From the IMG/VR virus record IMGVR_UViG_3300021400_000397: 64,000 nucleotides of DNA. One strand, given 5' to 3'. The notes below the pieces were generated by a model that was given only the letters and a program-made list of their open reading frames with translations, was not told the DNA's origin and did not search any database. This document shows, piece after piece, positions 9,908 to 58,797 of the stretch (position 1 is its first letter; every line of letters starts with the position of its first letter). Origin of the DNA: an uncultured virus (IMG/VR IMGVR_UViG_3300021400_000397). Its lineage: Duplodnaviria > Heunggongvirae > Uroviricota > Caudoviricetes. A program made the position numbers and the translations under genes.

Positions 9908-10624
9908 ATGAATAACATCACCCTGAGCAAGCGCACGGACTCGTTTGCGTGGTTTACGGAAGGACAGCGGCTGTTCACCGGGTCGACCTACGCGGTCGCC
10001 GTGGACGCCCCGGAGTTCCGCGGCGACACGGAATCCCCCGCCAGCTTCGCCGTAAAGTTCGGCGGCGAGGTGCAGGCCACGTGCGCGCTGGTCCCCGACC
10101 CGCTTCGGCGCGGCCTGCGCCGGGGGGTCATCACCGCCCCCGCCGGGGGCGACGGGGCCATCGTGGTCGAGCTCGCCGGAGACACGATCCTGATGGTCGA
10201 CGTCGCCGTGGTCGACCCGGCCGTTGCGCACACTCCGTCGCGGTGGACGGTCGTCGACCTCGGGACCGTGGCCTCCGGCGCCGTGTCGGTCGCGGACCTG
10301 ACGCAGGTGAAGCTCGCGGCCGCGCCCATGGACGACGTGCTCGGGGTGTCCCCCGCCGACCCGGCAGGGGCGTTCGACGCGTTCATCGTCGTGTCGGCCG
10401 CGGGGGCGCAGGCCACGAGGTTCCCGTTCTCCGGGGTTCTCGTCGACGGCCGCGCCCCGGTGTGGAGCCACCAGGATTCGCTTGTGATGCCGGCCCGCAC
10501 GTGGATCCTGCATATCATAAAGGTCGCCGGGGACTACTACGCCGACCTGCGCTCCGGGAGGCCGGCCGGCGCCGAGGTCGACCCCGACGGGGCCGTCGTG
10601 GTGAGCGCGGAGGTGAACACATGA
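9908..10624 (+). CDS. Hypothetical virion-associated protein (238 aa)
   Basis: RBS GGAGG; ATGA coupling to the collagen gene. Confidence 0.65.
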   Translation: MNNITLSKRTDSFAWFTEGQRLFTGSTYAVAVDAPEFRGDTESPASFAVKFGGEVQATCALVPDPLRRGLRRGVITAPAGGDGAIVVELAGDTILMVDVAVVDPAVAHTPSRWTVVDLGTVASGAVSVADLTQVKLAAAPMDDVLGVSPADPAGAFDAFIVVSAAGAQATRFPFSGVLVDGRAPVWSHQDSLVMPARTWILHIIKVAGDYYADLRSGRPAGAEVDPDGAVVVSAEVNT

Positions 10625-36900: not shown

Positions 36901-39900
36901 TCTGCACCGACACGGAGACCCTCAAGTCCGGCGCGTTCAGCTCCCGCTGCGGGTTCAAGGCGGAGCCCGGGAAGCCGTTCACCGTGAAGGCGGGGGGCAA
37001 GGAGATCGTATTCCAGCTCGAGGAGAAGGACGGGCAGCCCCCGAAGCTCCTGATGACGGTCGACGGGCAGAAGGTCCGCATGTTCGGCCGCACGATGGTG
37101 ACGCCCGAGTTCAAGAACGGCGGCGCCCCGCTCGCCACCATGCTGCCGGCCGTCGCGTTCGCGCTCGGGAAGAAGGAGCTCTCCGACGAGGACGTCGGCT
37201 CCATCGAGGCCGAGTGGCTGCTCCCGACGGGCGAGGCCACGGAGGCCAAGGCGCTCAGGGACTCCGGCATCTTCCAGTCCTACGGGACCGAGGAGGGCGA
37301 CAAGGTGTCCGTCGTCGAGAGCGCGTCCGGCGGCTACCGCGTCCGCTACTTCACGCGCTCGATGAACGCGCAGGTAATGGCGAACTCCGACGCGAGCGCG
37401 AAGCCGTCGTCCGAGCACCCCGCCGCGACCAACTGGGCGCGCGACGTCGTGGCCAACTCGGGGCGCGTCCGCCAGGCCCTCCCCGGGCAGGCCGACTTCA
37501 CGTGGTACGCCACCAAGGCGCTCAATGTGTCGAGGGCGGTCCCGTACGCCATCCTCCGCTCCCAGCCAGACTTCGTGCGTTCGCTCATCGAGAGCGACCC
37601 CGACCTCTACGCCGAGTGGATGGCGCACCCGAACAGCCAGGAGGTGCAGGAGCAGATCGTCCGCCGGGCCAACACGGCGTACGCCAAGGCGATGAAGGCG
37701 TACGTCAGCTCGATGCACGCGGTTCTCATGGGCTCCGGCATCAAGGCGACGAAGACGGCCAGGCGCGGCGACGGCACGTACGACGTGGAGTACTCGTACT
37801 CCGCCGGGGTGACCGACTACGACAAGGACTGCTTCCGCGACGCCCGCGTCCTTTCGCAGGAGGAGAAGGAGGCGTTCGGGGTCGGGCGCTCCTACTCGTC
37901 CGGGCAGGTGAACGTGCAGAGCGCGAGCTTCCGCTACGGCTGGCACGTGAAGGCGGATGCGGACTTCTCCGCGGTCGACGCATATGCGCAGGGCGCGGGG
38001 AGGGAGACGTACGAAGCGAACCTCGCGCGCCTCGAGCAGGCGTACGGCGACGCCGACGAGGACGTGAAGCGCGTCGCGTCGCTCGCCGCGTACATCGAGT
38101 ACTTCGACGGACTCCGCAGGGGCGAGGAAAAGGAGAAGGCCGCAAAGGTCCTCGGCTCCGTGTTCACCGACTACACCGGCAAGGCCGTGGGCGAGAACGC
38201 GTCGTGCAACCTGATGAAGCTCTCGTTCTCCGACCTGTTTCTCGGGCAGAGGTACGGTGGGGACCGCTTCGACCTCGCGGCCTTCGAGTTCCGCGGGGAC
38301 ACCCACGGCAAGAAGCTCGACAGGAACGGGAACCGCACGATCTACCTCGGCGGCGCGTTCTTCGCGGGCGACCGCCGCCCGTCCGGGAACTTCGAGGCGG
38401 CGGGCGGGCTCATCCGCGTGCAGGCGCCGGTCCTCTTCGACAAGGCCACCGGCAAGGTGGACGGCCACGCGCTCTACATCCTCCCGCCCCTCATGAACAC
38501 GACGCAGGGCTCCGACACGGACGGCGACTCCGCGACGGGCACCGTCATGTCCGGGAAGGGGCTCACCGCGGACGACCGCCGCATACTCGACCAGATACAC
38601 GACACCGTGATGGCGAGGATGAAGGACATGGGGGCCGACGAGTGGGAGAGGACCCTCCGCTGCGAAGACCTCGTCCACACGCTCCGCACCAGGTTCCCCG
38701 ACTACTTCGAGGAGGAGACGGACGAGGACGGCGTCAGGTTCGTGAAGCCCTCGGAGAGGCTCCACCAGCTCATCGGAAACGTCCTCCTGCAGGAGGAGAT
38801 CGACAACTACCGCCTCATGCCGAACGAGACGCAGGGCGCGTACGGGACGATGGACGTCAACAAGGCGGCGTCGTCGCGCACGATATACGACTTCGGGCTC
38901 GTCGGCAGGAGCCCCGTCGGGACGCAGGCCGTGTCCGACGACATAGACATCCAGGTCGGCGGGGCCGCATCGGCGATGGCCGCCGGCGTCCTCGGGGTCT
39001 CCGAGGACAGCCTCGCCGGAAAGTCGTACTACAAGGTGTTCAAGAAGTGCATCGACAAGCTGTCGCTGCAGACGATGCCGAAGCTCGACCTCCTGAACCC
39101 GCGTGTCGCCGCGTATCTGTCCGGGGCGGCCGCCGACGCGAACGGAGCCCGCGGCGTCATGGTGTCGCTGCAGGCGGCGCTCGAGCACCTGAAGGGGTAC
39201 GCCGACGTCGACCCGCGCATCAGGGCCCTGGCCCCCGCGCTCTTCGAGGACCGCGACGGATACCGGCCCGCCGAGGACTTCATAGGGCACCTCGACAAGA
39301 TCTCGAACGCGCTCTTCGACGTCGTGAAGGACCTCTTCGCGCCGCGCGCCGGCTGGCAGAAGGGCCTCCTCAACTGCCTCATGGCGAAGCTCCTCTCCGA
39401 CGCCAACGCGGAGTACAGGTCCTGGAGCGACGGCGGCAGGAAGGGGACCGGCCCGCAATGGGACGACGAGTGGTTCTTCACCGAGCTCATCGGGTTCGCG
39501 AAGGACCTGCACTCGTCGGACGCCAGCCTGCCCGCGCTCGTCGCCAAGGGGAACGCGTTCTACGACCACGGCGCCGAGGACGCGTTCCTGCCGGGCCAGC
39601 CGAGGCAGACCCTGCTCGGGGCCTACAACACCATGATCCTCGGCCGCAAGGACTGCGTGGCCAAGACCGCGTTCCTCGGGATGTACATGGTGCGCGACGG
39701 GCGCCTGGACCTCACGTCCTTCGGACGCCCCAAGGACGTGTCGAGGCAGTACCGCCTCCGCAGCGGCCTCAATGTCCGCGACGACGCGCGCGGCGAGATG
39801 GTGCCGGCCCACGGCGCCGACGTGCAGAAGGGCATCGCGGGCCTCATGTCCAGCATAGCCCGCGCCCTCCGCATGCGGGAGTCCGACTTCGCCGACGCAG

Positions 39901-42900
39901 AGGCGCGCAAGCGCGCAATCGGCCTCGGGTGGAGGCCGGCGACCGACTTCATGGACGAGGGCACGGCCAACGCGATCGCCGACGTCATGGAGGGCAAGGT
40001 GGACGGGCGGACCGCCGTGCGCGACCGCGCGACGAAGATCGCGGTCGGCATGCGCCTCCTCGCCGCGTCCGACCTCCCGTCCGCGCTCGCCGAGGCGCAG
40101 AGGGACCTCCGCGCGCTCCAGGCGCTCAACGACGTGATGGAGGCCGAGGACGGGCTGTCCCCCGACGCGGCGCTCCGCAACGGCGGGTCGAAGGCCATGG
40201 GGCACCTCGGGAAGATGGAGCGCGCCCGGCAGGCCGGCGCCGCCGTCGCGAACGAGATGGAGTCCGTGTACCTCGGGTCGAAGCTCAGGTTCGAGGACAT
40301 CGCGTCCGGGCGCGACCCGCTCGCCTCGGACCGCAGCGTGCGCGGGGACCTCGACGCCATAGAGGGGTCGCCGTCCGACTGGAGCTCGTACCTCTCCCGG
40401 ACGGGGCAGAAGCCCATGTCCGCCGCGGACTCGCGGGGGAACCCGGCGAACGACGAGGCGCTCCTCTTCATGGCCGCGTCGCTCTTCGCCGACGACTACG
40501 CGGACACCGGGGTCGTGCAGGCGAACCGCCTCAACCTCTCGCACCTCCTCGGCTGCGTCCACGCGGGGGTGCAGAAGTTCGGCGGGGCCCAGTACTCCGG
40601 TCTCGTGAACGGGATGTACGGCAGGTTCGCCGCCGCCCTCAACACGCTCGTCGAGGAGGCGCTCAACCACGGGACCGCGTCCGGCATGTCGCAGAACGTC
40701 GTCGACATGCTGACGATGCTCCGCCCGAACGTGAGGCGGAACACCGTCGACCTCGTCCTCCGCGCAAGCCCGGACGCCGCCAGGGTCCTCCGCACCGGGT
40801 TCCAGGAGCTCGAGGCGAACCAGAACGCCGTCGGCGGCGGGTTCTCCGGGGCCGGCCTCGCCGCGTGCATCAAGCTCTCGATGTGCGCCAACTCGCAGTT
40901 CGACCCCGCGCGGGACTCCAACGTCCGCGCCAACGTCTCCGCGATGTTCGGGGAGGAGGTCGACGAATGGGAGCGCTGGGGCGCGGCGGTCCCGCAGAAC
41001 CCCGTGCTCCGGCAGCTATGCAGGGTGCCGCGCACACGGGACAACGGCTACAACCTGTTTGCGGAGGCGGACCCGCTCAAGTACGACCCGTCCGTGGCTA
41101 GGAAGGTCGCCGCGGTCTCCGGCATGCCCGAGGTGACCGACAAGGACCTCGAGGACGCGGCCACGCTGTCGACCCCGTTCGCCGTGCTCAAGTACATAGC
41201 GATGACGGACTACACGTCCCCGCACAGGCTGCACGACGAGGCGGCGGAGGCCGACCCGCGCTTCCTCCCCGGAGGCGAGCAGCGCAGGAGGGTGACGTCC
41301 GTGTACGCCGAAGGCGAAAGCCACGTGCTGCGCCCGCAGACGTCCGTGCCGAACGTCAGGTTCCGCGGCCCGTCCGGCGAGTTCCAGACCGTCGAGGAGG
41401 CGGTGAACGACGTCATGCGCGAGCGCCTCGCGTCCTATGCGTCCGACAAGCGCATGGCCGCGTGGCTCGCCGACCCGCGCAACCTCACGAGGTCGTTCAA
41501 CCAGGCGAGGCTGTCGACGAGGTTCGCGGACGAGTCCGACCGCGAGATGTACGCGGCGACCGGGCGCGCGCCGCGCGGGGCCGTGCGCAAGGTGCCGCTC
41601 AGCTTCGACAACGTGATAGACGAGGTCCTGGAGCGCGCCTGGTCCGACTACGGCGAGCAGTTCGCCGAGTGGGCGAGGAGCGCGGCGTTCGACGGGGGCG
41701 AGACGTTCTCGGAGATAGCGAGCCCCCTGATGCGCGGCAGGCTGAAGGCCTTCGTGCAGGCGCACGCCGAGACGGCGCTCGAGTCGCCTTCGATCGGGTC
41801 GGGGTCCCTGGACCCCTCGTTCGCCGTGCAGCGCATGAAGCGCGGCGGGCTCTTCGACTTCCTCGAGGGGAAGCACCCCGAGGACAGGGACCGCTTCATC
41901 CACGACCCGGAGGCCAACATCCGCGGCGCCCTGGAGGCCGTGTTCGGCGACTGGTCGAAGGAGACCGGGTGCAAGGTCGAGCGCGTGACCGGCGAGGGCG
42001 GCGTCCCGATGAACCTCATCCGGGTGACGCGCAAGGTCAAGGACGCGCGGGAGACCCACGAGGTCACGACGTACATCTCGTACGGCGACTACCTCTCGAT
42101 GAAGGCGAACAACGCCAACTACAACCAGGCGATCCTGAACGCCATCAACGAGCGCGCGAACCGGAAGATGACGATGGGCGAGCTCATGTCCCTCACCGAG
42201 GAGGAGCGCGTCGCGATGGCGAACGCCGCGGGGCTGCGCGTCAAGGGCGAGTCCGTCGCGGCGGAGAAGTGCCTGGGCACGAAGGCGCTCATGGCGCTCA
42301 CGGGCCTCGTGCGCCTCTCGGACGTCTCCGACTACCACACGCTCTTCCACGAGTACTTCCACCAGATGCTCGACTTCTACAGGAAGACCGGCGTCTGCAC
42401 GGCGGAGGACGAGGCGGCGCTCCTGAAGAAGTACAGGACGGCCGACGGGCGCTTCGACGAGGAGGCCGCCGCGGACGCCTTCGCGAACTACGTGACCGGC
42501 GACTCCGCGAGGAGCCTCCGCGGGAGGCCCCTCGCCGCCGGGTTCGGCGGGGACGAGGACAGGGTGTTCGCCAAGTTCAAGCGCACCGCGCAGGCGTACC
42601 TGGCGGGCCTGATGGCCTACGACTCCAGGGGCGTCCCCGCGTTCATGAAGATGGTGATCTCCGGCGACTTCTCGAAGCGCGACATGAAGGACATGCAGGA
42701 CTTCGACGACGCGCAGAGGGAGAGGCTGGAGAAGGCGCTCCTCGGGGAGGAGGTCGACTTCGGCGCGCCGAACCGCTGGGAGAGCGTCGACGGGCAGCTG
42801 AAGGACGACGGGTACGCGCTCGCCAACGCGCTCGCCGTGTACAGGGACGGGCTGGTGGACGTCGACCAGGTGAAGGCCGTGGCGAGGAAGTTCGTCGAGG

Positions 42901-45900
42901 ACGGCAGGAAGCCCGAGAACCGCGTCACGTTCGACGCGATCATGGGGTACAGGCTGACGCAGGCCGAGCCGAGGGGCGTGGAGCCCTATTCGCCGGACGA
43001 GGTGTTCACGGCCGCCGCGCCGGACACGCTGGACGTGCCGGTCACGTCGCTCCGCACGTACAAGACCGAGCCCGAGTCCTCGCTCGCGAACGCCCGGACG
43101 CGCATGGACGACGCACGCGCCGGACGGGGGCCGAAACGGGGGCCGATCCTCGTGGTGGCCAACGCGGACGGCACGTACACGATCGTGGACGGCACCAGCA
43201 CCGCGACGACGCTGGCCAGCACCGGGAGCCCGACCGCCAGGGTGAGGATCCTGGGCGTCGCCCGGTCCAGCCGGATCTCGGACTCGCTCTACCTGGTCAA
43301 GAACGAGACCCCGGGCGCCGACAAGGACGGCGTCCTGAGGAGCCACGGCGCCGGCAGGGACGCAGGTTCGCTGGACCAGCACTACAGGAACGCCGAGGAG
43401 AACGCTCCCATCCTGAAGGACATCGCCGAGAAGACCGCGAAGGACGTCGGCGGCAAGGCCCTGCACAGGAAATCGCTCAAGAAGCGGGCCCGGGTCGAGG
43501 AGAAGGCCAAGGAGTACGGAGGGGACTACTCCCGGGTGATAGACCTCATCGGGAGCACGGTCACGCTTCCGGGCTCCGCCTACATCCCGGACGTGCTTGC
43601 GGCGCTGAGGAGGCGGCTGGCCGAAACCGGGCTGGGCGAGGTGACGAGGGTGAAGACGCTGGCCAAGGTCCACAAGGACCTGACCGGCATCGTCGGCGTC
43701 GAGAAGCAGGGCGAGATCGAGGGGTACTGGGACGTGAAGGTGTCCATCCGGTTCAGGAACGGGGGGATCGGAGAGCTCATCCTGGTGGACGGGAACGTGC
43801 TGGACGCGAAGAACAACCGCGGCGGGCACGACCTCTACGACTACCAGCGCGTCCTCGAGGCCGCGATGCAGCGCGGCGACGGATGGGAGCACCTCGGCGA
43901 CCTGGCGACCCTCTTGTCCGGAATGGAGCACGCCGTGTACTCGCACGGGACGCCGGCCGCCATGCAGTACCAGGGCGACTACCTGGAGAAGCTGCGCAAG
44001 GAGGCGCTGGCCGAGCTCGAGGCGTACCTGGCGGAGCAGAAGGGGGCCGGGGAGGGGCCGCTGACGGACGAGTTCGTCAACGAGCTCCGCGGCCTCCTGA
44101 CCTCGTCCGACGCCCTGAAGACGCCGGAGCTTCCGGCCGCCGACGCGGCGACGCCCCACGAGCTCGACGCCACGCCGGGCCCCGCCACGGACGGCGCCGA
44201 CACCGGGCCCACGCTCGCCCAGCGCCTGTCCGACCCGGCGACGCCGGTCGGCGACCGCGTGTCGCTGCTCTTCAAGGAGGCGCTGAAGCGCCTCGGCGAC
44301 GGCACCTCGGAGAGCGCGGACCTCACGGCGGCCATGAACCGCTTCCGCGACCTCTCCGACGTCGGGGGGGCGGCCGGGCCGGACTTCGACCTCGCCACCT
44401 ACACCGCCCGCCGCGCCCTCAACCACGTCTGCGAGATGCTCGGCGTGAACATCTGGAACTACGCGGAGGACGGAACGAAGTCCCTGAACGACCTCGGCAG
44501 GCAGCTGATGTCCGACGAGAAGATCTCCGGGTTCGTCGTCCGCCTCGTCCACGAGTACTCCGTGAAGAGGGCGGAGGAGAACGCGTACGAGACCCCCGCC
44601 GGGGTCGGGTCCCCGGCGCAGTTCGCGTCGGCCGACTACGTGATGGGCAGCATGCTCGCCGGAGTCGTCCCGTCGAAGTGGACGGAGTTCTGCCGCGGGC
44701 GCGCGGACACGGCGCGCGACTACTTCCTGAAGGCCGCCGAGGACCTCGAGGCCCGCGCGGCCGCCATGCGCGCGAAGTTCGCCGGCGACGTCCCGGCCGA
44801 CGCCGAGGAGGACGCGAAGAGGCTCGAGCTGCAGGCGGCGGACGCGAGGCACAGGGCCCAGGACGTCGTGAGGTTCACGGCGGCCGTCATGAACGGGGAG
44901 CCGCTGAAGCGCCTCATCCCGACGATGAACATGCTCCAGAACCGGAAGGGCTGGACCGCGAAGCAGGAGGCCTCCAACTACTACGGGTACCTGCTCCAGT
45001 ACATCACCGGGGCGGCCCGCATGGAGCGCCAGGCCGACGGATCCGTGAAGTACGTCCCCGGCGACGCCTTCGGGTTCAGCAACGCGACGCTCGACTTCTC
45101 GTCCCGGTTCGTGCAGGAGGCCATAGACGCCGCCGCGAAGGCCCTCGGCGTCGCCCAGGTCGTCCGCCGCTACGTGAAGGAGAACGGGGTGGACCAGCCC
45201 GCCCCGGGCGAGAGCGTCTCGATCCCGACGGTGCCCGCCGGGGACGGCGGGGCGGAGGCCCCGCTCGCCACGCCGCCCGCGGAGGGCGTGATGGAGCCGG
45301 ACCTCCACCCGCAGCTCATCCTCCAGCTCCCGGGCTCGTGGCAGGCGTCCGACCTCCAGAAGCAGTTCTACGGCGGGTCGTTCCGCGACATGATGACGGA
45401 CGTCTCGCTCAACGCCGCCGCCGAGGAGACGAACCGCCTAGCGAACCGCATCGACTTCTACCTCGCGGCGAACTGCATGCCGGGCGAGAGCCCCAACGAG
45501 ATCGAGGAGGCGACGTCCGACCTCGGGATCGAGGACGGGCTGTTCACGGCGGACGAGAAGAACCGGCACTTCGCCCGCCGCGTGGCCGGCGTCCGCGGCT
45601 ACATGCTCGGCCTCGTGAACCGGGCGGCCAGGACCAGGGGCCGCCCGATGACGCAGGAGGACGTGAACCTCGTCCACTTCGTGCTCCAGGCCGCGGCGTG
45701 CGCCGCCAACGGGCACGACGTCTACACGGGGTACGACATCCCGTACGTGAACCGGAGGATACTGGACCAGCTGCTCTCCGACGTGGGGAGCGCCGCCGAG
45801 CTCGAGGCGGCCACGCGCGAGGGGCCCGGCCACTCCGGCGTGTACTCCCCGGAGGCGGTCTTCGGCCGCGTCTACGGGCACGTCTCGAGCGCCGGGCGCC

Positions 45901-48900: not shown

Positions 48901-51044
48901 AGGCGACCAACAAGATGTCGATACCGCTGCAGAAGGTGGTGGAGGCGTTCTTCGGGTCGACGAACGGGTCCAACTTCGGGAAGAAGTTCTCCGAGAAGTC
49001 CCTCACGGAGCGCTTCCTGACGACGAGCCTCGACCCGAACGAGAGCGCGCTCGCCAACTTCGTGACCGGGTTCGCGCCGTTCTCGGTGGCGTCCGTGGGC
49101 GGACACCCGGACACGGGCGTCCTCGGCATGGTGGGCCCGGTGAACCAGGGCACGTCCAAGACGCGGTCGCAGAAGGAGATCCGGAGGATCCTCACCGAGT
49201 TCGCGAGGAAGGACCAGTACGACGCATGGTCGTTCCCGGCCAACAGGAAGAAGCTGACCCAGCTGTGCACGCTCGTCATGAAGGAGGCGAGGATGAACGG
49301 ACTCGACCCCGACGAGCTGCTGACGTCCGCGCTCGGCCAGGTCACGTCGCAGGAGTACATCCGGCTCTTCGAGGCCCTCCCGCGCACGGCGAGGGACGGA
49401 GTGCACGCGAAGGAGGCCAAGGCGGCCCTGCGCGCCCTGTACCGCGTGAACCGCAAGCGCAGCGACATCCTCCAGTCCGTCAAGAAGAAGTACATGAACG
49501 CGGGCGTGGACTGGTCCCAGCAGAGGAACGCGGCCGTCCGCGCCGCCGTGAAGGAGTTCCTCGGCGAGACGCGGGCGGACCCGTGGCTGTCGGACGAGGC
49601 GGTCGACGAGATCTTCGAGAGGCACTTCGCCGAGCCGTCGTTCCAGGCGCTCCGCTCCGTCGACGTCCAGCAGGACCGCAAGGGCGGCGAGGCGCTCGCC
49701 AACTTCCTGGCGACCGACGACGTCCCGGAGACCCTGTTCGGCATCCCGGTCGTATCGAAGGACTACACGGAAGAAGACCTCGAGTTCTTCAAACGGAACC
49801 CGAAGGCCGCAGGCTTCTACGACCTCGGCGACGGCGGGGAGCCACCGGACGAGCCCCCGCCGGAGGAACCACCGCCGGACGAGCCCCCGCCGGAGGAACC
49901 ACCGCCGAACGAGCCCCCGCCCGTAATGGACGAAAAGGGCGGGGAGGCCTACACGGTCCCCTCGGACACCTTCGGCGCGGACGACTTCGACCCCAACGAG
50001 ATATGGAAGGGCGTGCTCGACCGCAAGGGAACGATGATGGACGGCCTGCGCGAGTTCTACGGGGACAAGACGGACGAAATCGTGAACCAGGCGGTGGCCG
50101 CGCGGATGAAGGCCGCCGGGTCCACGGTCGACGAGGCCCGCGCCTCCGTGCTGGACCCCCGGGCCATTCCGGTGGTGTTCGACCCGTCGCGGGAGTCCGG
50201 CCAGCAGTACGGCAACCTCCCGAACGACCCGGGGTCGTCGCCGTTCTCGAGGAGCGACCCGCTGCTCTACTCCGGCACAAAGGCCCCGGAGGGCAAAAAC
50301 CCGTACATGAACGACCGCGTGGCCGCCGTGTACACCCAGCTCCTCAAGAACCCGCGTCTGGGGACCACCGAGCTGATCGGGGAGGACCGCAGCCCGCAGG
50401 CCCTCAGGGACCTCGCCGTGGCGCGCGCCTACTCGCGCGCCTACGAGCTCATCAAGGCCTACGACGGAAAGGTCGCGGAGGGATCGGCCCGCCCGAACGG
50501 GTCCCCGCGCGTCCGCAGCCATGTGGACGGGTACAACACGTACGTAAACATCGCGAACACGAAGTCCCTGAACCACGAGATGGGCCACCACGCCGGAAAA
50601 CCGCGCGGGCACAGGGTAAACCCGGATGTGCGGGACAGCGTCGCGGCCCCGGAGAACTGGTACTACGTCTCCGACAACGCGGAGCTGTCCGCCGCAATGG
50701 CCTCGCTCCGGCGGTCCGTGTACAGGAGGTCCGGCGGAAAGGTGGACACAGCCGATCCGGAGCACCTCCGCGCAGTCCTACGCGAATACGCCGCGGAGAA
50801 CGCCAAGGACTACAAGGGCCCCAGGCACTACGACGGAAAGTGGCTGTCCAGCGACGCCAGGCAGTTCATGGACGCCTACTGGGCCCTCCGGGAGTCGGAC
50901 ACGAGGAAGCTCCCCGAGGGGTCTCCGTGGAAGACCCGCGGCGAACGCGCCGCGGAGGTCAACAAGATCGTAAAGGACCCTACGCGGACGGGCCAGGTCG
51001 TCGAGGTGGCCAGGCCCCGCAGGCGTGGAAAGGGGGTGGCGTGA
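27987..51044 (+). CDS. Giant (7685 aa) polyvalent virion protein with putative two-barrel RNA polymerase, zincin peptidase, ParB-like and RelA/SpoT-like domains
   Basis: Uninterrupted ORF with promoter and RBS; RRP (38373) ... ILPP ... GSDTDGD (38508-38528); HEYFH (42348); PILV...YTIVDG (43143-43193); RelA/SpoT-like motifs (43470-43850); HEMGH (50574). Confidence 0.85.
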   Translation: MPTFEPLRPRTTEPVDPFEDIENQAFQPLLPEQAPGGIHQPVVGNVGEPPASPLAGDLGALTPTEFAEPRDGARASALHRQGVNWAEDTSGEARPFQSRLGFYDLDYDTKGRRGVELGKGTDYIEAANVFGRQFTRAELEKDDEGRKLIKLMEAQRTGSHQEAGFWKGLTDWNLGNTPWLGWMMDLGSTVSETIAISKAMRKMQNGEAVSNHEAIAVRRFMLQQELESQRSTSYQIGSTIRASTPFVVEIMGATAMSAAAAKVGAWVGGAIAGIGSGGALAPVGAAVGGAIGAIGGFIFGGGAILSKALKGGGKKLATKMAENQILAGLAKKTFAEGITRAARKEAIGIAAGAVGKTTKEISKLALQAGQARAAEAVGRELAGKALGEAAVKNWTAEQFAAYAVKNASTKEMRKRAVFEASKWVGETFKDVADISMDAKLARTFLVNGDVVNMVEQGWVGTLEKAALSKVYGQAPKAEEGLFRGMVSYWKDRAAVRRGLDKLTDEDIAGLRKTFLTSMMDKAAGRPSAVNAVTASISESLGGAAVDRGYASKVAEHLVNNATRSFMLKYQGKGFVNGATRVARWVGDGILDGMLRWDTSIYHGAGTIARNGSVLGGKMLALKEAMKASFVEAPLRGAMQLGMQMPLWPVVSMATGNDAGDFVVRGQLGTQATALQTGDRELMDNARAIAIGSGLVEYISESSGRGFNIAAEGIAAPMLKNAPFLKATREVGSYMSRKLESVFGTQAMMKAANRDKLAGAVVSYLGAKAGEGVKLPGITKTQVAQLVAGVKNVANVPEVLRALGLKSEKELIKDAISSQFNLSRMRAGMTYFVAHNMLERGLTPQKMAAWLQRVGYDGVLAEMAEERYGGFFQGLLGLDDSPSDSTMRDRWAAAMRGLFPDPHQLLVEAVSFSFPAMTQLTMNSLYSHLGRGIVQETLDDAKVVSMHHSLTPEITIPVMSAEGAKAYADYHAGAQALYEKATVGEGGEEKAWNDVLGRSGTTAEADGEVVEGARAPTRAQAVKAAVADGSLKLNDKNKDISNPNVSDEEMEALLREKAQRIIDLSNNEEDLNKQLADHQAEEVFGKDGVEAIRRLKRKDPGYMDAAKQAALGEGSEYAEFVKNAPAIELKEDADADSVAAEITAALPFVSNDSAMTAEVRERLSARQGVEINKYSGDYVGEVAGSLGRLGDKWIDFKYQLGKDHWWGRRALMRVTGILDAVTTGRLELAARNPVQWAMEEAQLPRQLMNAVGQLRERSIQEGREIWLRRKFGGDYLSAEAAQKIRSTPLADASADMLAEFRKAGEESYQTSLREYAQMFLTARNVVAVSRGDIEDAALRVVAHRHRDEVGGRVVYRYGDKTTDDFRSAEFRAAVAGEEMARAKSDIVKGLAQIAVSDAVAVNSHARFGNVNTTSITFSYDRAMRFGDNAEVVAAIRAMPAFRNMRAVYDVSDGGHVKDYALGRTVDVGELLDMRTDGQLEPADLRRVMFAMGRYYGEFTEAQNQQAAAQYLARLKLAVENSEPLSFEYRDGTTAEVQTSYGLDKDGNRVVTLTCNGVSVTGRTTLEATKLLEEARVAKPDGTFPEADVVDPATGLAVKKGGVLANWRQFAVLQNDSISSRDATSLVLLMHGSREKAREAYERFYGHKVDEALYPPQLRRVRRDGVDTWLYEDDEEAARGLAAELRSTDEGVRNAVRGTGKDGDAYAVGYERAAELMLERYGITRSKQDAAATDVYRGEASYSIRPNGIAFGDTIYLQSDYYSGGDAEMMLRSAFARAIFDAATKPGKAFDDPSAFVGILQEMDKAFSRAADECVAELEDRNPDMAQRVRDAMASLPSSPGRVDPARMAAIAAAVGVFSDERGLNEYGNGFLFGPELAYVADRARRSPWATLFLSAMDEALGGRGFFAESADPLQGLGRFLDAFAPSGRELMASRSSAMFTNGGEGAKKSGIVFQWYGVPKDISAAGLASGVAPVIDDTTLSNFTGVENDTVRGLLLKGVARHCREFGDAYRKAGGTPTTAEMYRMLKHALDSGGDTAGGEAKPSIGSGFGGVSIATDARVRQPLSSEVVPDDVAFGIGRNLQFLAPGASVGGVGGRAQALKARSTVRRFLFERGCYSSNAERIVAKFIDAAGAEGSDSASDAALDEEEWTSLADVLSEGSGNQDIFFDAKRANAAIENRDLMDLGRQWSYVYPSEGGAFTQVLARFSNEILRLAEKDGAADELKTLAGLFNVLRSRRSGRSGGSIAAATGVWNDSSRVAKDAKVTDALLARAVASLHASGHDELAFVLNGIRNIPADGKRRAQALALVGYMTPLDVNRVTVGDSGVGTIDTMGSASLAAVSSVRASMSHALSRLFPRVMDGRRTTPEELYRNISVLDNLLLLSGSEKFFERDKAGTPFAKKTIAEYEALLAGARAGADARAAFEKNPSDDAALVAFANALSSRMSAVADALDYVLGPGNELTYALRSPDVVGGVVRSVRNAKGDALKTAKERLLQLFDSCEESKVANSRCPLISHAVLNPAIAAIQRAVASKGGQPLRGGRQYADIKSHGLSAVDILNALSDDHIARLFSRGDPTPQGAPRSLWFRNKLPGGVVNSFMGRVFGLYAASAPRSVARMSGLREESLDASSQVTATPASEPVMMAAVEDRLLAPLGVLDGYLQRGGRFEDGSRLVTVTAGAKLEDGTIVDKAQLSVIVAAANIDRFVKGDVRNGYFEVYHGEKPSVYSISLPRDVMQKILDGIHSGADWAMNRVTRKMVEDGVLPKTIDAPDHRGELYDALFSVVAAAARCDQIESKRTQVLLAQGVPFSTHRDRMLRTVDGKVEEVSAAVSTMDGKAKVTPGLYCDIIVSGTDAAQNLGMYLNHGFLIESQRAQATNPASVSFKNHLIDWFGSALFKGQGHDFGLGMYETDAVPVSGTLAEACRVQRRRLEEVLGIKEGTLDLPDPEKPPTDEERAYRESAIGLVEEFLLSSTTLCTDTETLKSGAFSSRCGFKAEPGKPFTVKAGGKEIVFQLEEKDGQPPKLLMTVDGQKVRMFGRTMVTPEFKNGGAPLATMLPAVAFALGKKELSDEDVGSIEAEWLLPTGEATEAKALRDSGIFQSYGTEEGDKVSVVESASGGYRVRYFTRSMNAQVMANSDASAKPSSEHPAATNWARDVVANSGRVRQALPGQADFTWYATKALNVSRAVPYAILRSQPDFVRSLIESDPDLYAEWMAHPNSQEVQEQIVRRANTAYAKAMKAYVSSMHAVLMGSGIKATKTARRGDGTYDVEYSYSAGVTDYDKDCFRDARVLSQEEKEAFGVGRSYSSGQVNVQSASFRYGWHVKADADFSAVDAYAQGAGRETYEANLARLEQAYGDADEDVKRVASLAAYIEYFDGLRRGEEKEKAAKVLGSVFTDYTGKAVGENASCNLMKLSFSDLFLGQRYGGDRFDLAAFEFRGDTHGKKLDRNGNRTIYLGGAFFAGDRRPSGNFEAAGGLIRVQAPVLFDKATGKVDGHALYILPPLMNTTQGSDTDGDSATGTVMSGKGLTADDRRILDQIHDTVMARMKDMGADEWERTLRCEDLVHTLRTRFPDYFEEETDEDGVRFVKPSERLHQLIGNVLLQEEIDNYRLMPNETQGAYGTMDVNKAASSRTIYDFGLVGRSPVGTQAVSDDIDIQVGGAASAMAAGVLGVSEDSLAGKSYYKVFKKCIDKLSLQTMPKLDLLNPRVAAYLSGAAADANGARGVMVSLQAALEHLKGYADVDPRIRALAPALFEDRDGYRPAEDFIGHLDKISNALFDVVKDLFAPRAGWQKGLLNCLMAKLLSDANAEYRSWSDGGRKGTGPQWDDEWFFTELIGFAKDLHSSDASLPALVAKGNAFYDHGAEDAFLPGQPRQTLLGAYNTMILGRKDCVAKTAFLGMYMVRDGRLDLTSFGRPKDVSRQYRLRSGLNVRDDARGEMVPAHGADVQKGIAGLMSSIARALRMRESDFADAEARKRAIGLGWRPATDFMDEGTANAIADVMEGKVDGRTAVRDRATKIAVGMRLLAASDLPSALAEAQRDLRALQALNDVMEAEDGLSPDAALRNGGSKAMGHLGKMERARQAGAAVANEMESVYLGSKLRFEDIASGRDPLASDRSVRGDLDAIEGSPSDWSSYLSRTGQKPMSAADSRGNPANDEALLFMAASLFADDYADTGVVQANRLNLSHLLGCVHAGVQKFGGAQYSGLVNGMYGRFAAALNTLVEEALNHGTASGMSQNVVDMLTMLRPNVRRNTVDLVLRASPDAARVLRTGFQELEANQNAVGGGFSGAGLAACIKLSMCANSQFDPARDSNVRANVSAMFGEEVDEWERWGAAVPQNPVLRQLCRVPRTRDNGYNLFAEADPLKYDPSVARKVAAVSGMPEVTDKDLEDAATLSTPFAVLKYIAMTDYTSPHRLHDEAAEADPRFLPGGEQRRRVTSVYAEGESHVLRPQTSVPNVRFRGPSGEFQTVEEAVNDVMRERLASYASDKRMAAWLADPRNLTRSFNQARLSTRFADESDREMYAATGRAPRGAVRKVPLSFDNVIDEVLERAWSDYGEQFAEWARSAAFDGGETFSEIASPLMRGRLKAFVQAHAETALESPSIGSGSLDPSFAVQRMKRGGLFDFLEGKHPEDRDRFIHDPEANIRGALEAVFGDWSKETGCKVERVTGEGGVPMNLIRVTRKVKDARETHEVTTYISYGDYLSMKANNANYNQAILNAINERANRKMTMGELMSLTEEERVAMANAAGLRVKGESVAAEKCLGTKALMALTGLVRLSDVSDYHTLFHEYFHQMLDFYRKTGVCTAEDEAALLKKYRTADGRFDEEAAADAFANYVTGDSARSLRGRPLAAGFGGDEDRVFAKFKRTAQAYLAGLMAYDSRGVPAFMKMVISGDFSKRDMKDMQDFDDAQRERLEKALLGEEVDFGAPNRWESVDGQLKDDGYALANALAVYRDGLVDVDQVKAVARKFVEDGRKPENRVTFDAIMGYRLTQAEPRGVEPYSPDEVFTAAAPDTLDVPVTSLRTYKTEPESSLANARTRMDDARAGRGPKRGPILVVANADGTYTIVDGTSTATTLASTGSPTARVRILGVARSSRISDSLYLVKNETPGADKDGVLRSHGAGRDAGSLDQHYRNAEENAPILKDIAEKTAKDVGGKALHRKSLKKRARVEEKAKEYGGDYSRVIDLIGSTVTLPGSAYIPDVLAALRRRLAETGLGEVTRVKTLAKVHKDLTGIVGVEKQGEIEGYWDVKVSIRFRNGGIGELILVDGNVLDAKNNRGGHDLYDYQRVLEAAMQRGDGWEHLGDLATLLSGMEHAVYSHGTPAAMQYQGDYLEKLRKEALAELEAYLAEQKGAGEGPLTDEFVNELRGLLTSSDALKTPELPAADAATPHELDATPGPATDGADTGPTLAQRLSDPATPVGDRVSLLFKEALKRLGDGTSESADLTAAMNRFRDLSDVGGAAGPDFDLATYTARRALNHVCEMLGVNIWNYAEDGTKSLNDLGRQLMSDEKISGFVVRLVHEYSVKRAEENAYETPAGVGSPAQFASADYVMGSMLAGVVPSKWTEFCRGRADTARDYFLKAAEDLEARAAAMRAKFAGDVPADAEEDAKRLELQAADARHRAQDVVRFTAAVMNGEPLKRLIPTMNMLQNRKGWTAKQEASNYYGYLLQYITGAARMERQADGSVKYVPGDAFGFSNATLDFSSRFVQEAIDAAAKALGVAQVVRRYVKENGVDQPAPGESVSIPTVPAGDGGAEAPLATPPAEGVMEPDLHPQLILQLPGSWQASDLQKQFYGGSFRDMMTDVSLNAAAEETNRLANRIDFYLAANCMPGESPNEIEEATSDLGIEDGLFTADEKNRHFARRVAGVRGYMLGLVNRAARTRGRPMTQEDVNLVHFVLQAAACAANGHDVYTGYDIPYVNRRILDQLLSDVGSAAELEAATREGPGHSGVYSPEAVFGRVYGHVSSAGRPSNLDQLLCRILEGVPRSVLGWEDMGMDGGYFRRDGVYCRLLEAFYITGRNRTEGVAVGDADFHQRVTALLMEAGLADKSAATGRVVLTIPVSEVKKAWESPWSYRQELIDNGGRRAELLDIDYIAEVVAAEANRLNKVAGRSRWLSDSAVGSALAGRAQGLWFEAGTGHHQAIVDHLKNARELFRGEVSPDERLRNAYGALQDTLRSHTREVTHRRLVPGPDGRLVEKPERVIEGNLPAFEKGRDGQLANISNRQLLYLGRLLGLGRRVANVNEFLNDILAGYYTKAHTSSIFGFDIRPDMTVFEFDRLVFDVISAHVATEAQHPDDPGHTPLTKAYDEGGCGYGHQDLVDVYYLHGQLQQKLMDDASADGAVRGRICSMSERDMFRTQGKLGSSKTATERLRSMAGSITHAERFRGCLAQMLTTVGTDGAPNFVVKPSEHAQDLMPDEFWQATSRFVLDRLRSVGDMVRYDSAKSGFENMREVAKAAAALARGKSKENARARYHMLPPNEIGAEMLFEEVWCADDSANDDVNVLSKFSNERLLHPNGSEAEGYMRQLFGSVTKPTVWAGHRVLDRVMSYSKAASVGLSAFFAVATRFESPVAACGFWNTAMGYRKGTAELARRLAKSKLGEALGFRKNLPYLADYLEAITSDDPYIQYMRELCDMINMPLTDSVMNPLTEKQGAIDADIDRISRWLLAEGHPRMARELRSAMKAAFHNPGEYAFSNVLNGVKMAVVAQTMFRLREECERAGRPFDPVRELRRHSAYINAEIGGIQPERYAFLTPGMQQLLRLGMFSYQWTLGAWVAGSGEVVSDLLFGGHHTNAATRQRAFIRWLRMLGVVKIGVPVFMQLAIKALATALVKSGIVGDPDDPDDKDPLGIDDMPWLCFFNESKVGSLAFDVTPITKLLGRSETLVDIKNKRGAYPFITSVAGAVAGAALTRRWWGALAGGFAGRNIGAVIPASEGVGRGANTTGRRRQYMHFGKQNDEFWRWFTDGWAQATNKMSIPLQKVVEAFFGSTNGSNFGKKFSEKSLTERFLTTSLDPNESALANFVTGFAPFSVASVGGHPDTGVLGMVGPVNQGTSKTRSQKEIRRILTEFARKDQYDAWSFPANRKKLTQLCTLVMKEARMNGLDPDELLTSALGQVTSQEYIRLFEALPRTARDGVHAKEAKAALRALYRVNRKRSDILQSVKKKYMNAGVDWSQQRNAAVRAAVKEFLGETRADPWLSDEAVDEIFERHFAEPSFQALRSVDVQQDRKGGEALANFLATDDVPETLFGIPVVSKDYTEEDLEFFKRNPKAAGFYDLGDGGEPPDEPPPEEPPPDEPPPEEPPPNEPPPVMDEKGGEAYTVPSDTFGADDFDPNEIWKGVLDRKGTMMDGLREFYGDKTDEIVNQAVAARMKAAGSTVDEARASVLDPRAIPVVFDPSRESGQQYGNLPNDPGSSPFSRSDPLLYSGTKAPEGKNPYMNDRVAAVYTQLLKNPRLGTTELIGEDRSPQALRDLAVARAYSRAYELIKAYDGKVAEGSARPNGSPRVRSHVDGYNTYVNIANTKSLNHEMGHHAGKPRGHRVNPDVRDSVAAPENWYYVSDNAELSAAMASLRRSVYRRSGGKVDTADPEHLRAVLREYAAENAKDYKGPRHYDGKWLSSDARQFMDAYWALRESDTRKLPEGSPWKTRGERAAEVNKIVKDPTRTGQVVEVARPRRRGKGVA
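49839..49921 (+). repeat. 30-bp tandem repeat encoding a Pro/Glu linker (DEPPPEEPPP)
   Basis: Directly visible. Confidence 0.85.
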
Positions 51045-57217: not shown

Positions 57218-57513
57218 CTCCGCTCTCCCCATATCCAGTAGCGCGCCGTCTTCAGCACGTTGGTCTGCGAGACGTCCGCCCCGGGGCCGTACATGACGAC
57301 CTCGATGCGGTGGCAGACGTTCGTCCCGTACCGCGTCCTGGCGCCCCACCCGTAGTGGCGCGCCCTCGCCTCGAGGTCCGCGCACCGCTCCTCCTGCCTC
57401 GACTGCCACGCCCACGTCCTGTAGCCGTAGGCGTCCCCGTTGTACATGTCAACCGTCATGTTGCTCGTGCACCCGCACAGAGCCACTGCCGCAATCGCCG
57501 TCAACTTCTTCAT
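57214..57513 (-). CDS. Small lipoprotein
   Basis: MKKLTAIAAVALCGC signal peptide II / lipobox. Confidence 0.7.
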   Translation of the reverse strand: MKKLTAIAAVALCGCTSNMTVDMYNGDAYGYRTWAWQSRQEERCADLEARARHYGWGARTRYGTNVCHRIEVVMYGPGADVSQTNVLKTARYWIWGERR

Positions 57514-57935
57514 GTCCGCTTGCCTCCTTTGCCTGTCTTGTCGTGCATGGTCCAGTACATCCGCTCGTACAGCCACTCGATGATGTACGCGCCGAACTCC
57601 TCGTCGTCCGTGTTCATTATGCGCAGGGCCTCGTGCGTCGCGTGGAACGCCTCGTGCACGAACACGGAGAAGTCCCACTTGGGCATGAGTATGAACACGT
57701 CGCCCATGTACTGGGCGGTCGCCCCGAGCGCCGGGTTGTCCCCGTTGCCGATCGTCCGGTCCCAGTAGTCCGACAGGAACGCCCAGGTCTCCTGGACCGC
57801 CCTGTGGTCCGCCGTGAACCCATCGAACGTCTTCGGGTCGAGGAACAGCCGGCGGACCTCGTCCTTGGCCCCGCAGCACACCACGAAGCCACGGCGCATT
57901 AGGCCGCCGTCGAACGCCTTCACGAACGGCTTCAT
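57510..57935 (-). CDS. Zincin-like (HExxH) phage protein
   Basis: VHEAFHA followed by DEEFGAY. Confidence 0.65.
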   Translation of the reverse strand: MKPFVKAFDGGLMRRGFVVCCGAKDEVRRLFLDPKTFDGFTADHRAVQETWAFLSDYWDRTIGNGDNPALGATAQYMGDVFILMPKWDFSVFVHEAFHATHEALRIMNTDDEEFGAYIIEWLYERMYWTMHDKTGKGGKRT

Positions 57936-58186
57936 CACCGGCCCCTCCCGTAGCACGCCTTCACCTCGGCCTTCGTGCCGGTGCAGACGAGCACGCCGTC
58001 GGCCTCGACGCCGTAGACGTGCCGTCCGCCGTCCTCCTCGTCCTCGAAGAGGACGAACGCGAGCCTGCACCCGCCGGCGGTCTTCTCGTGGATCGTCTTC
58101 AGGGGTTTCAGCCCTCTCCTCCGGACGGTGTCGCCCATGAGGCGCAGGGCCTCCCGCTTGGACTCCATGATCTCGGTGTCCGTCAT
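57935..58186 (-). CDS. Hypothetical protein (83 aa)
   Basis: Coupled ORF. Confidence 0.55.
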   Translation of the reverse strand: MTDTEIMESKREALRLMGDTVRRRGLKPLKTIHEKTAGGCRLAFVLFEDEEDGGRHVYGVEADGVLVCTGTKAEVKACYGRGR

Positions 58187-58797
58187 GATGCTCCGGCCTC
58201 GTCGTACTGCGACGCAAGCATGTCGGCCGTGTGCGTCGCGATGACCTCGAGCGGGAACTCGGATATGGCGGCGTCGAGGTGTCGGACGTCATACTCCTCG
58301 CCTATGCGCCACGCGCCCATGTGGTACACGATGCACACCTGCTCGACGTGCGAGATCGGATGCCCGAGGAACTCGGGAGCGAGCATCGCCGAGAGCGTCC
58401 CGTGCCCAGGGAAAAGTGGCGTCGCCTTGCGGAACGAGTTCGTGTACTCCGGGTTTTCCTCGTACGCGTGCACCTTGCACAGGTCGTGGCACATGCCGAT
58501 TGTGTAGGGCGACCCCGAGTTAGACCACGCGATCTTGAGATCTCCGGACAGCTGCAGGAGCCGGTCGGTCACGTTCATCGAGTGTATCGCGAGCCCGCCC
58601 TTCACGGCAAGGTGGTGGCCCGCCGAGGCGGGCGCGGCCAGGAAGCTCGCCACGTGTCCGCTGTAGTTCAGGAGGAGCGCCGGGTTCGCGTCGGCGAGCA
58701 CGAGGTACTCCGCCGCCCTGTCGACCTGCTCGTCCGTAAACCACGACAGCCCGTACAGTTCGCGCAGGCGCCTCTTGACCTCTTCGATGTCTACCAT
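58183..58797 (-). CDS. HD-domain phosphohydrolase
   Basis: APAS..HH...GGLAIHS, CHDLCK, GHG, YHMG, HTAD. Confidence 0.85.
   Translation of the reverse strand: MVDIEEVKRRLRELYGLSWFTDEQVDRAAEYLVLADANPALLLNYSGHVASFLAAPASAGHHLAVKGGLAIHSMNVTDRLLQLSGDLKIAWSNSGSPYTIGMCHDLCKVHAYEENPEYTNSFRKATPLFPGHGTLSAMLAPEFLGHPISHVEQVCIVYHMGAWRIGEEYDVRHLDAAISEFPLEVIATHTADMLASQYDEAGAS

Follow-up and report, generated by a model that had tools for sequence, protein, structure and literature searches.

A ParB/Srx-like and Tas1-like cassette inserted in a giant protein of an uncultured Caudoviricetes virus, a candidate polyvalent effector

Introduction

How does a RelA/SpoT-like domain that has lost canonical nucleotide-binding residues come to lie within a giant viral protein, and can it still be an enzyme there? 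The question is posed by a 64,000-nucleotide stretch of DNA from an uncultured virus of the Caudoviricetes (IMG/VR record IMGVR_UViG_3300021400_000397; the whole stretch, ~69% G+C, is called the window below), in which one unbroken open reading frame (ORF) at 27987-51044 on the plus strand encodes a protein of 7,685 amino acids (P0001, hereafter the giant), with a G+C content at third codon positions (GC3) of 0.97. A preceding sequence-only reading of the window had proposed that this frame carries a recently acquired cassette, composed of a ParB-like domain and a RelA/SpoT-like domain with non-canonical catalytic residues, and had named an HD-type gene elsewhere in the window as its speculative counterpart. 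In the analysis reported here the cassette, residues 4988-5406 (419 residues; 42948..44204, plus strand), emerges as a discrete, in-frame and recent insert. Our favoured reading, which we hold with even confidence, is that it would be an injected polyvalent effector, in which a 3'-pyrophosphokinase resembling Tas1, its donor pocket remodelled, is joined to an arginine-less ParB/Srx partner in a slot for effector exchange.

Alarmone-type pyrophosphokinases are familiar as stress enzymes, as secreted toxins and as defence toxins; as injected phage cargo they have, to our knowledge, been predicted and not characterized. [quoted passage not shown] The ParB/Srx superfamily comprises the free serine kinases SerK and SbnI, sulfiredoxin, the CTP-binding proteins ParB, Noc and KorB, Osa, and DdrB-ParB (PF18763). 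The kind of protein described below is thus already known; new are the module, the subclade to which its kinase-like domain belongs, the defined slot and the presence and absence of the cassette at the level of populations.

Insertion of the Cassette

With the conserved flank at residues 4701-4990 as query, 56 relatives of the giant (6,679-7,925 residues) were retrieved, and in local phmmer searches over these 57 giants both cassette domains were found in two only, P0001 and P0002. The flank-to-flank distance was then measured in the 35 giants in which both flanks could be mapped: it is 3-26 residues in 32 of them, 419 residues in P0001, 423 in P0002 and 199 in P0288. The last of these carries, in the same linker slot as the cassette (residues 5262-5462 of P0288), an ART-PolyVal domain (E 4.7e-12; 47.3 bits, cut-off 31.2). 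A viral contig of 100,129 bp (L002), which was recovered again when metagenomes were scanned with the flank alignment, encodes a related open frame of 7,437 residues, to which residues 1460-4987 and 5406-7282 of P0001 align around a 17-residue linker that replaces the cassette. The limits of the cassette given above derive from the mapping of the flanks, from a trough in identity and from its outlying codon usage. It ends in a helical tail and a linker rich in Pro, Ala and Thr (residues 5346-5406; 44022..44204, plus strand), delimited by the helices of the structure model, which run to its residue 229, and by the alignment with P0002 and L002; this part is 45-60% identical to P0002.

Public metagenome contigs mapped onto 42400-44800 give the same picture among close relatives. 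One contig (X7; 18,783 nt) is ~98% identical to the window in its flanks, with 11 differences over 42400-42966 (567 nt) and 13 over 44203-44800 (598 nt), and joins position 42966 directly to 44203: 1,236 nt (42967-44202) are absent and 33 other letters stand in their place, both lengths being divisible by three. The cassette with bridged junctions is found in contigs of X2, X4 (record 9) and X6 (records 19 and 24), of which X2 shares its study with the possible source of the window, and X4 and X6 come from a second study. Because X7 lacks the cassette and these contigs bridge it, genomes ~98% alike in the flanks yet differ by the cassette. P0001 and P0002, in turn, are ~93% identical per 100-residue window, against a trough of 50-74% across residues 4981-5420. 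No direct repeats were found at the cassette boundaries, where merely low-identity GC-rich matches occur.

The codon usage of residues 4981-5420 was set against that of 363 equally sized windows sliding along the ORF. CTG makes up 0.61 of CTG plus CTC in the cassette, where the windows average 0.30 and 7 of the 363 are as high, CGG 0.53 of CGG plus CGC against 0.18 (8 of 363) and GGA 0.185 of GGA plus GGC against 0.094, where 50 of the 363 windows are as high and the shift is therefore weak. Over all synonymous codons the chi-square amounts to 78.8, compared with a mean of 35.5 (standard deviation 22), a value reached by 14 of 363 windows; GC3 is alike (0.96 in the cassette, 0.97 in the ORF). 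At other loci bearing the module the CTG share lies between 0.25 and 0.81. Of the codon shift put forward in the sequence-only reading, the CTG and CGG components are thus upheld and the GGA component is weak. Its other proposals on the origin of the cassette, an in-frame insertion with a recent separate history, and the check for presence or absence in related giants that it suggested, are answered in the affirmative by the two carriers among 57 giants, by the 17-residue linker of L002 and by the contig that skips 42967-44202.

Folds of the Two Domains

A representative search with residues 5001-5400 returned 295 proteins at E≤1e-3, from which the best 150, together with P0002 and P0003, form the examined set (n=152). 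The N-terminal part of the module occurs in 105 of these, the C-terminal part in 141 and both in 94, with the N part preceding the C part in 85 of the 94. The peptides on which the first reading was built do lie in a single frame: PILVV..DGTST at residues 5053-5072 (43143-43202), LKKRARVEE.. at 5164-5190, GYWDVKV starting at 5246, NGGIGELIL starting at 5258 and GGHDLYDYQR at 5279-5288 (43821-43850).

The N domain (residues 5001-5115; 42987..43331, plus strand) has a confidently folded core at about residues 5010-5096, with a predicted local distance difference test score (pLDDT) of 87.1 for the domain model. A profile built from the query and 57 homologues matches Noc (1.8e-4), Spo0J, SbnI and ParB with this domain, and Foldseek returns ParB/Srx members only (SbnI, free serine kinase, ParB, PadC, sulfiredoxin and Noc). 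From these profile and model comparisons the N domain is assigned the ParB/Srx alpha+beta fold. In the HMMER alignment to Noc, the motif DGTST (residues 5068-5072; 43188..43202, plus strand) occupies the position of the ParB GERR motif. At this place the family consensus reads DGNxT, with D in 103 of 107 sequences, G in all 107, N in 94 and T in 103; the T that the window has at the N position recurs in 4 of the 107. A K-R-x-P motif is conserved ahead of strand 2. The domain thus differs from the ParB/Srx superfamily in reading DG[N/T]xT and in lacking the active-site arginine of the GERR or DGHHR type.

The C domain (residues 5116-5345; 43332..44021, plus strand) is predicted to have a RelA/SpoT-type fold. 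The same query and 57-homologue profile matches Tas1 (6OX6) at E 1.1e-26, followed by an exported Streptomyces synthetase (8VX3; 1.4e-6), RelSeq (2e-4) and YwaC (7e-4). The AlphaFold model (pLDDT 87.3; predicted template modelling score, pTM, 0.82) contains the central antiparallel sheet and flanking helices of the SYNTH fold and is nearest to solved synthetases of the RelA/SpoT homologue (RSH) type: Foldseek places Tas1 on top (E 1.6e-6) and RSH synthetases alone thereafter among the matches listed at E≤1e-3. Tas1 is therefore the closest solved relative of this domain both by sequence profile and by structure.

These relationships are scarcely visible in direct searches. Scans of Pfam, NCBIfam and PHROGs gave no family match for the whole giant or for the cassette stretch, and phmmer gave no useful match for the latter among PDB sequences. 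Pfam RelA_SpoT (PF04607) does not match the window's own stretch at E≤1, and neither do ParB_N or ddrB-ParB match its N domain. Among 71 homologues scanned, RelA_SpoT matches 11, ten on the homologous stretch and one just behind the N domain, with seven of the 11 at or above the gathering score (27 bits) and none among the 18 scanned members of the subclade described below; ParB_N matches one (P0048; 22.7 bits, E 1e-4), below its 26.3 cut-off. The Pfam check that had been suggested for the two domains hence fails on the window sequence and succeeds, for RelA_SpoT, on some relatives. The two fold assignments that had been made by eye, a ParB/Srx-like first domain and a RelA/SpoT synthetase with its motifs in order, agree with the profile matches to Noc and Tas1 and with the two Foldseek lists.

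Active Site and the G/I Subclade

The C domain was aligned over 144 sequences, and counts given below are of filled cells per column; all coordinates are on the plus strand. A basic helix with K5165 (133/134), R5169 (116/135) and K5173 (135/136), at 43479..43505, would bind the triphosphate by analogy with K66, S70 and K74 of FaRel2 (PMC11782079). In DLIGST (residues 5186-5191; 43542..43559) the Mg-binding Asp is kept (D5186, 137/137), the Arg of Tas1 DLARNT is replaced by Gly and the canonical Arg at +5 is also absent. The G-loop GYWD (residues 5246-5249; 43722..43733) holds Y5247 (133/135), the probable acceptor-stacking tyrosine judging from PMC7229694 and PMC11782079, and a family-specific Asp, D5249 (133/135). 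NGGIGELI (residues 5258-5265; 43758..43781), the glycine-rich signature of the subclade, retains the catalytic Glu (E5263, 133/133) and has Ile for the Gln of ExQ. GGHDLYDYQR (43821..43850) supplies the conserved His, Tyr and Arg (H5281, 129/132; Y5284, 130/132; R5288, 118/132) of a helix behind the catalytic strand, and K5275 is near-invariant. D5186 and E5263 align to the Asp and Glu of Tas1, and the window retains all 15 near-invariant columns listed for the domain. As can be seen, the domain has the catalytic Glu and Mg-binding Asp of RSH enzymes along with their basic helix and G-loop Tyr, and the donor-adenine Arg after the Asp and the Gln of ExQ are the elements that have gone.

The two substituted positions vary within the family in a structured manner. 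Of 137 cells at position 5189, Gly in the window, 77 hold R, 47 hold G and 12 hold A; of 133 at position 5265, Ile in the window, 81 hold Q, 44 hold I and 6 hold L. Taken together, the two positions read R/Q in 60 sequences, G/I in 32, R/I in 11, G/Q in 8 and A/Q in 7. In a quick IQ-TREE maximum-likelihood tree of 124 rows (20 of the 144 omitted for a gap at either position or for coverage below 60%), the 32 G/I sequences lie together across one branch, with a Shimodaira-Hasegawa-like approximate likelihood ratio test (SH-aLRT) support of 88, and one change, a count that none of 500 shuffles of the labels matched. The cassette of the window is sister to that of P0002 (support 100). Members of this subclade are 30-45% identical among themselves, share N, G, G, G, E and I near the catalytic Glu in 12 of 12 sequences, and their profile matches Tas1 (E 2.3e-9) with DliGgT on DLARNT and GEvI on GEIQ. 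The G/I sequences form a single-origin, conserved subclade, and the loss of Arg and Gln that had been read from the window is a property of that subclade and not peculiar to this gene. Between P0001 and P0002, moreover, all 17 C-domain and all 14 N-domain family-conserved columns are identical and the other columns are 64% identical; because these columns are unchanged and the subclade spans 30-45% identity, we read the substitutions as a shift in function and not as decay.

What the substitutions may mean for the donor site can be judged from solved relatives. In the complex of FaRel2 with an ATP analogue, R64, R95, Q147 and G93 coordinate the donor adenine, E145 touches the amino group, and Mg is bound by D90 (PMC11782079); the ATP-binding residues reported for SaEAS and Apk1 include an Arg (R124/R330), a Glu, a Gln, an Asn and a Lys (PMC12691689). 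Of the Apk1 set (R330, E382 and the following Gln, N370 and K353), the cassette keeps the Glu and has the Arg and the Gln replaced, and K5251 stands at the position aligned to the Asn of Tas1 GYSGVN. From the spacing of the motifs, with support from the Tas1 alignment, we infer that G5189 corresponds to FaRel2 G93, T5191 to R95 and I5265 to Q147. Because of this mapping, the cassette would be devoid of any side chain that clamps the donor base, with the triphosphate-binding, metal-binding and catalytic elements and the acceptor Tyr retained.

Carriers of the Module

Locus scans were run with the subclade alignment, the wider family alignment being too diverse, and yielded one viral contig and ten contigs from metagenome-assembled genomes (MAGs) of animal guts, the latter assigned to Kiritimatiellae, Akkermansia, Lentisphaerae and other Verrucomicrobiota. 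A scan of viral contigs with the single protein gave one weak locus alone (L001), and tblastn with the cassette gave no match in the phage or plasmid collections. Seven of ten module-bearing ORFs from these other loci contain LPD3, ART-PolyVal, PBECR5, LPD38, ddrB-ParB or RadC. The scaffold of the giant was not found in the module-bearing MAG genomes scanned; in the control contig it was found. Three module-bearing contigs of similar size, L009 (99,448 bp), L014 (96,272 bp) and L016 (97,857 bp), binned to Akkermansia, Kiritimatiellaeota and Lentisphaeraceae MAGs and without the giant scaffold, may be phage genomes and not pieces of chromosomes.

The module is common to otherwise unrelated proteins of 2,000-5,600 residues: in 31 cassette-sharing proteins of at least 2,000 residues other than P0002, no similarity to P0001 at E<1e-5 was found beyond the cassette. 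P0003, which is 41% identical over the cassette, has ART-PolyVal, LPD3, LPD23 and ddrB-ParB elsewhere in the protein, and MuF_C, LPD23, InPase, Zeta toxin, FtsK and 2'-5' RNA ligase-type domains occur in other homologues. In a viral structure library, the top matches to the C domain are ~1,000-residue proteins of uncultured phages named ART-PolyVal-like, DdrB-like, RelA/SpoT or Tas1 and of polyvalent type. Two homologues (P0055 and P0097) contain the kinase domain twice each, in tandem.

The family of the giant itself has the make-up of polyvalent proteins, with unrelated effector domains in a huge polypeptide that are shuffled among relatives. Domains that vary among the giants are ART-PolyVal, RadC, lysozyme and PF08719 (precomputed Pfam), and relatives also bear NADAR-type domains. 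The giant contains HExxH motifs at residues 4788 and 7530, neither of them with a Pfam family match. The former, HEYFHQ (42348..42365, plus strand), lies ~200 residues upstream of the cassette, and this region may be a zincin-type processing peptidase, a role suggested by the polyvalent proteins of PMC5512222.

Proposed Function and Alternatives

Because ART-PolyVal occupies the same slot in P0288, seven of ten ORFs at other loci carry polyvalent domains and the viral structure matches are of polyvalent type, we place the cassette in a polyvalent-effector setting. From this setting we infer that the giant would travel with the virion and enter the host alongside the DNA, where the neighbouring peptidase may release the kinase domain. 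This domain would move pyrophosphate from a nucleoside triphosphate (NTP) to the 3'-OH of a purine nucleotide to give a (p)ppApp-like product, upsetting host nucleotide pools or signalling at the onset of infection, and the remodelled donor pocket would provide either an altered donor preference or an altered control of donor binding. Since all catalytic columns are conserved, an active enzyme is favoured over an inert decoy.

Several points weigh against this proposal. Activity and substrate of the cassette are predicted from sequence and models and virion packaging from the polyvalent setting, and family membership is drawn from profiles and predicted structure, because the window's own sequence has no match in Pfam, NCBIfam or PHROGs. 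The peptidase role of HEYFHQ is suggested by its motif, and the structural context of the giant by neighbours that are almost unannotated. With all adenine-clamping side chains lost, the donor site could no longer bind a nucleotide productively. Since a very fast, Tas1-like drain of ATP would harm replication of the phage, the enzyme would need to be slow, under control or aimed elsewhere. Finally, the N domain is present in 11 of 31 G/I relatives, as compared with 43 of 60 R/Q and 11 of 11 R/I relatives, and because it is thus optional in the G/I subclade no obligatory joint mechanism of the two domains can be claimed.

The loss of the adenine clamp also admits a bolder interpretation, which we think unlikely: the G/I subclade might represent a new RelA/SpoT specificity in which the donor pocket, no longer selective for adenine, accepts another NTP or pyrophosphate donor, or in which the acceptor is new, for instance a host immune signalling nucleotide, so that the cassette would be an injected counter-defence plug-in with the arginine-less ParB/Srx domain presenting the nucleotide or substrate. 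It is less probable again that the kinase domain pyrophosphorylates tRNA at its 3' end, or some other end of RNA or DNA, in the manner of CapRel and FaRel2 and so halts host translation. The ParB/Srx-like domain could in that case help to hold nucleic acid. By sequence the family is far nearer to Tas1 (E 1e-26) than to any other chain of solved structure. FaRel2, a tRNA enzyme, keeps the donor-adenine Arg and Gln that the cassette has lost (PMC11782079), and the changes in the cassette hence do not follow the tRNA enzymes that are known. A catalytically silent binder, serving as a sponge for alarmones or immune nucleotides or as a decoy for a host sensor of RelA/SpoT-type enzymes, is in our judgement just as improbable as action on RNA ends. 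Two residues that bind ATP in Apk1 and FaRel2 (PMC12691689, PMC11782079) are now Gly and Ile, and the absence of the canonical +5 Arg points the same way. Yet the Asp (137/137), the Glu (133/133), both lysines, the Tyr and the His are kept across a subclade of 30-45% identity, and are the same in P0001 and P0002 despite 36% differing sites elsewhere in the cassette; as a pure binder needs no metal-binding or catalytic residues, this account is disfavoured.

Two further explanations concern where, or whether, the cassette acts. Instead of being an injected effector, it might function inside the cell that makes the phage or against competing phages, for example by superinfection exclusion, or it might be a selfish passenger in a permissive linker. 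Being rare (2 of 57 giants) and polymorphic among near-identical genomes, it is dispensable for the phage, and phage-borne RelA/SpoT toxins with roles in exclusion are known (PMC7229694). The functional columns are constrained, however, and the fusion is in frame with a protein whose relatives bear lysozyme, ART-PolyVal, RadC and NADAR-type domains, which is the pattern of injected polyvalent proteins (PMC5512222), so that we put this explanation slightly lower still than a silent binder. That the cassette is a decaying, non-functional insert is hardly credible. Its 65% identity to P0002, with flanks at ~93%, the dip to 50-74% per 100 residues and a codon usage unlike that of the host gene could be taken for decay, but no stop or frameshift interrupts the cassette, both folds are predicted at high confidence and none of the 31 family-conserved columns differs between P0001 and P0002.

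Comparison with Known Systems

Set beside Tas1, the cassette reads DLIGST and GELI for DLARNT and GEIQ, and the residue after GY, Gly in Tas1, is an invariant Asp in the cassette family. The mode of delivery differs as well, Tas1 being a PAAR/T6SS effector and the cassette a domain inside a phage giant. An immunity gene like Tis1 was not seen, though no search aimed at Tis1 was made. A second parallel is Apk2, a MuF-fused relative of Tas1 from a temperate phage of Bacteroides caccae, which makes (p)ppApp and is accompanied by Aph1 and Tis1 immunity; its co-injection with the DNA has been raised as a possibility (Ahmad et al. 2023, PMC10083569). Apk2 and the cassette are alike in being phage-borne, Tas1-like synthetases fused to a carrier that is virion-associated, probably so in the case of the cassette. 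They differ in that the carrier here is a 7,685-residue polyvalent scaffold and not MuF, in the active site of the G/I subclade, and in that the cassette has no immunity or alarmone-hydrolase gene tied to it in its neighbourhood, within the limit on Tis1 just given and with the HD gene not linked to it (see below).

Iyer et al. (2017) list RelA/SpoT, DdrB-ParB, InPase and an N4-like virion polymerase among phage-type polyvalent domains, describe RelA/SpoT as "not very widespread" and proposed injection and alarmone-like interference with host signalling (PMC5512222). The giant and its module are of the same kind as those proteins, with a RelA/SpoT nucleotidyltransferase in large, multi-effector phage proteins beside DdrB-ParB, ART, LPD3 and InPase; an arginine-less ParB/Srx partner, the G/I subclade and a defined swap slot are not described in their text as far as it was compared. 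FaRel2 and CapRel, toxic small alarmone synthetases (toxSAS) that pyrophosphorylate tRNA, keep R64, R95 and Q147 (PMC11782079), for which the cassette, mapped by motif, appears to have no counterparts.

The significance of the locus is threefold. It uncovers a two-domain module that is invisible to Pfam on the window sequence, is seen by it on few relatives and recurs in phage polyvalent proteins. A subclade of single origin, in which the clamp is replaced and the catalytic machinery kept, poses a sharp question of substrate choice. Near-identical genomes with and without the cassette, together with an ADP-ribosyltransferase in the same slot of one relative, illustrate effector swapping in giant phage proteins and offer matched strains for a comparison of fitness.

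The HD Gene and Other Features of the Window

The HD-type ORF at 58183-58797 (minus strand; 204 residues from an inner ATG) shows an H..HD..H..H..D pattern. It has 179 homologues among metagenomic protein clusters (48-90% identity), with generic HD PF01966 precomputed in 4 of the 120 listed; its own sequence has no Pfam match, and a profile of 15 homologues matches no PDB chain at E≤1 and so no solved alarmone hydrolase. Six homologues pair with cassette-less giants by contigs of equal size (29,742; 88,081; 59,691; 56,170; 72,775; and 88,865), and presumably share those contigs with them. In the L002/L004 phage, which lacks the cassette, an unrelated ORF of 120 residues occupies the syntenic place and no HD homologue was found; this joint absence (n=1) is outweighed by the six homologues matched to cassette-less giants. 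The HD gene as a dedicated partner of the cassette, the counterpart proposed at the outset, is accordingly rejected, with 179 clusters standing against two cassette giants and no hydrolase match. Within the phage group it counts as an accessory gene and has no specific link to the cassette.

Other parts of the giant show signs of exchange. Its C-terminus, residues 7300-7685 (49886-51044), is 17-25% identical to P0002, compared with ~93% elsewhere, is the strongest codon-usage outlier of the ORF and includes the motif HEMGHH (50574-50591); it looks like a second, C-terminal swapped module. Further insertions and deletions of 43-130 residues recur at residues ~1014, ~2650, ~6885 and ~7303 in pairwise alignments with five relatives, and these sites are possible additional cassette slots. 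A possible lead to a two-barrel virion RNA polymerase lies within residues 3150-3950, where GSDTDGDSATG, of the DxDGD type, occurs at 3508-3518 (38508-38540). For that region the viral clusters of the ESM Atlas are all sub-threshold (top 0.86), one of them, at 0.83, with Pfam RdRP PF05183.

Upstream of the giant, PHROG matches are lacking for 14 of 16 other ORFs tested, and the sole annotatable neighbour is the ORF at 9949-12000 (plus strand), a tail-fibre-like protein with collagen repeats (Pfam Collagen 1.8e-9; many PHROG tail-fibre families). No RNA dataset is among the listed sequencing runs that contain the stretch, all of which are animal gut metagenomes (20 rows, 13 studies). The ORF at 57510-58292 (minus strand) has a HEAFH motif in its C-terminal part and is 39% identical over 130 residues to a stretch of the related viral contig (L004 15373-15744).

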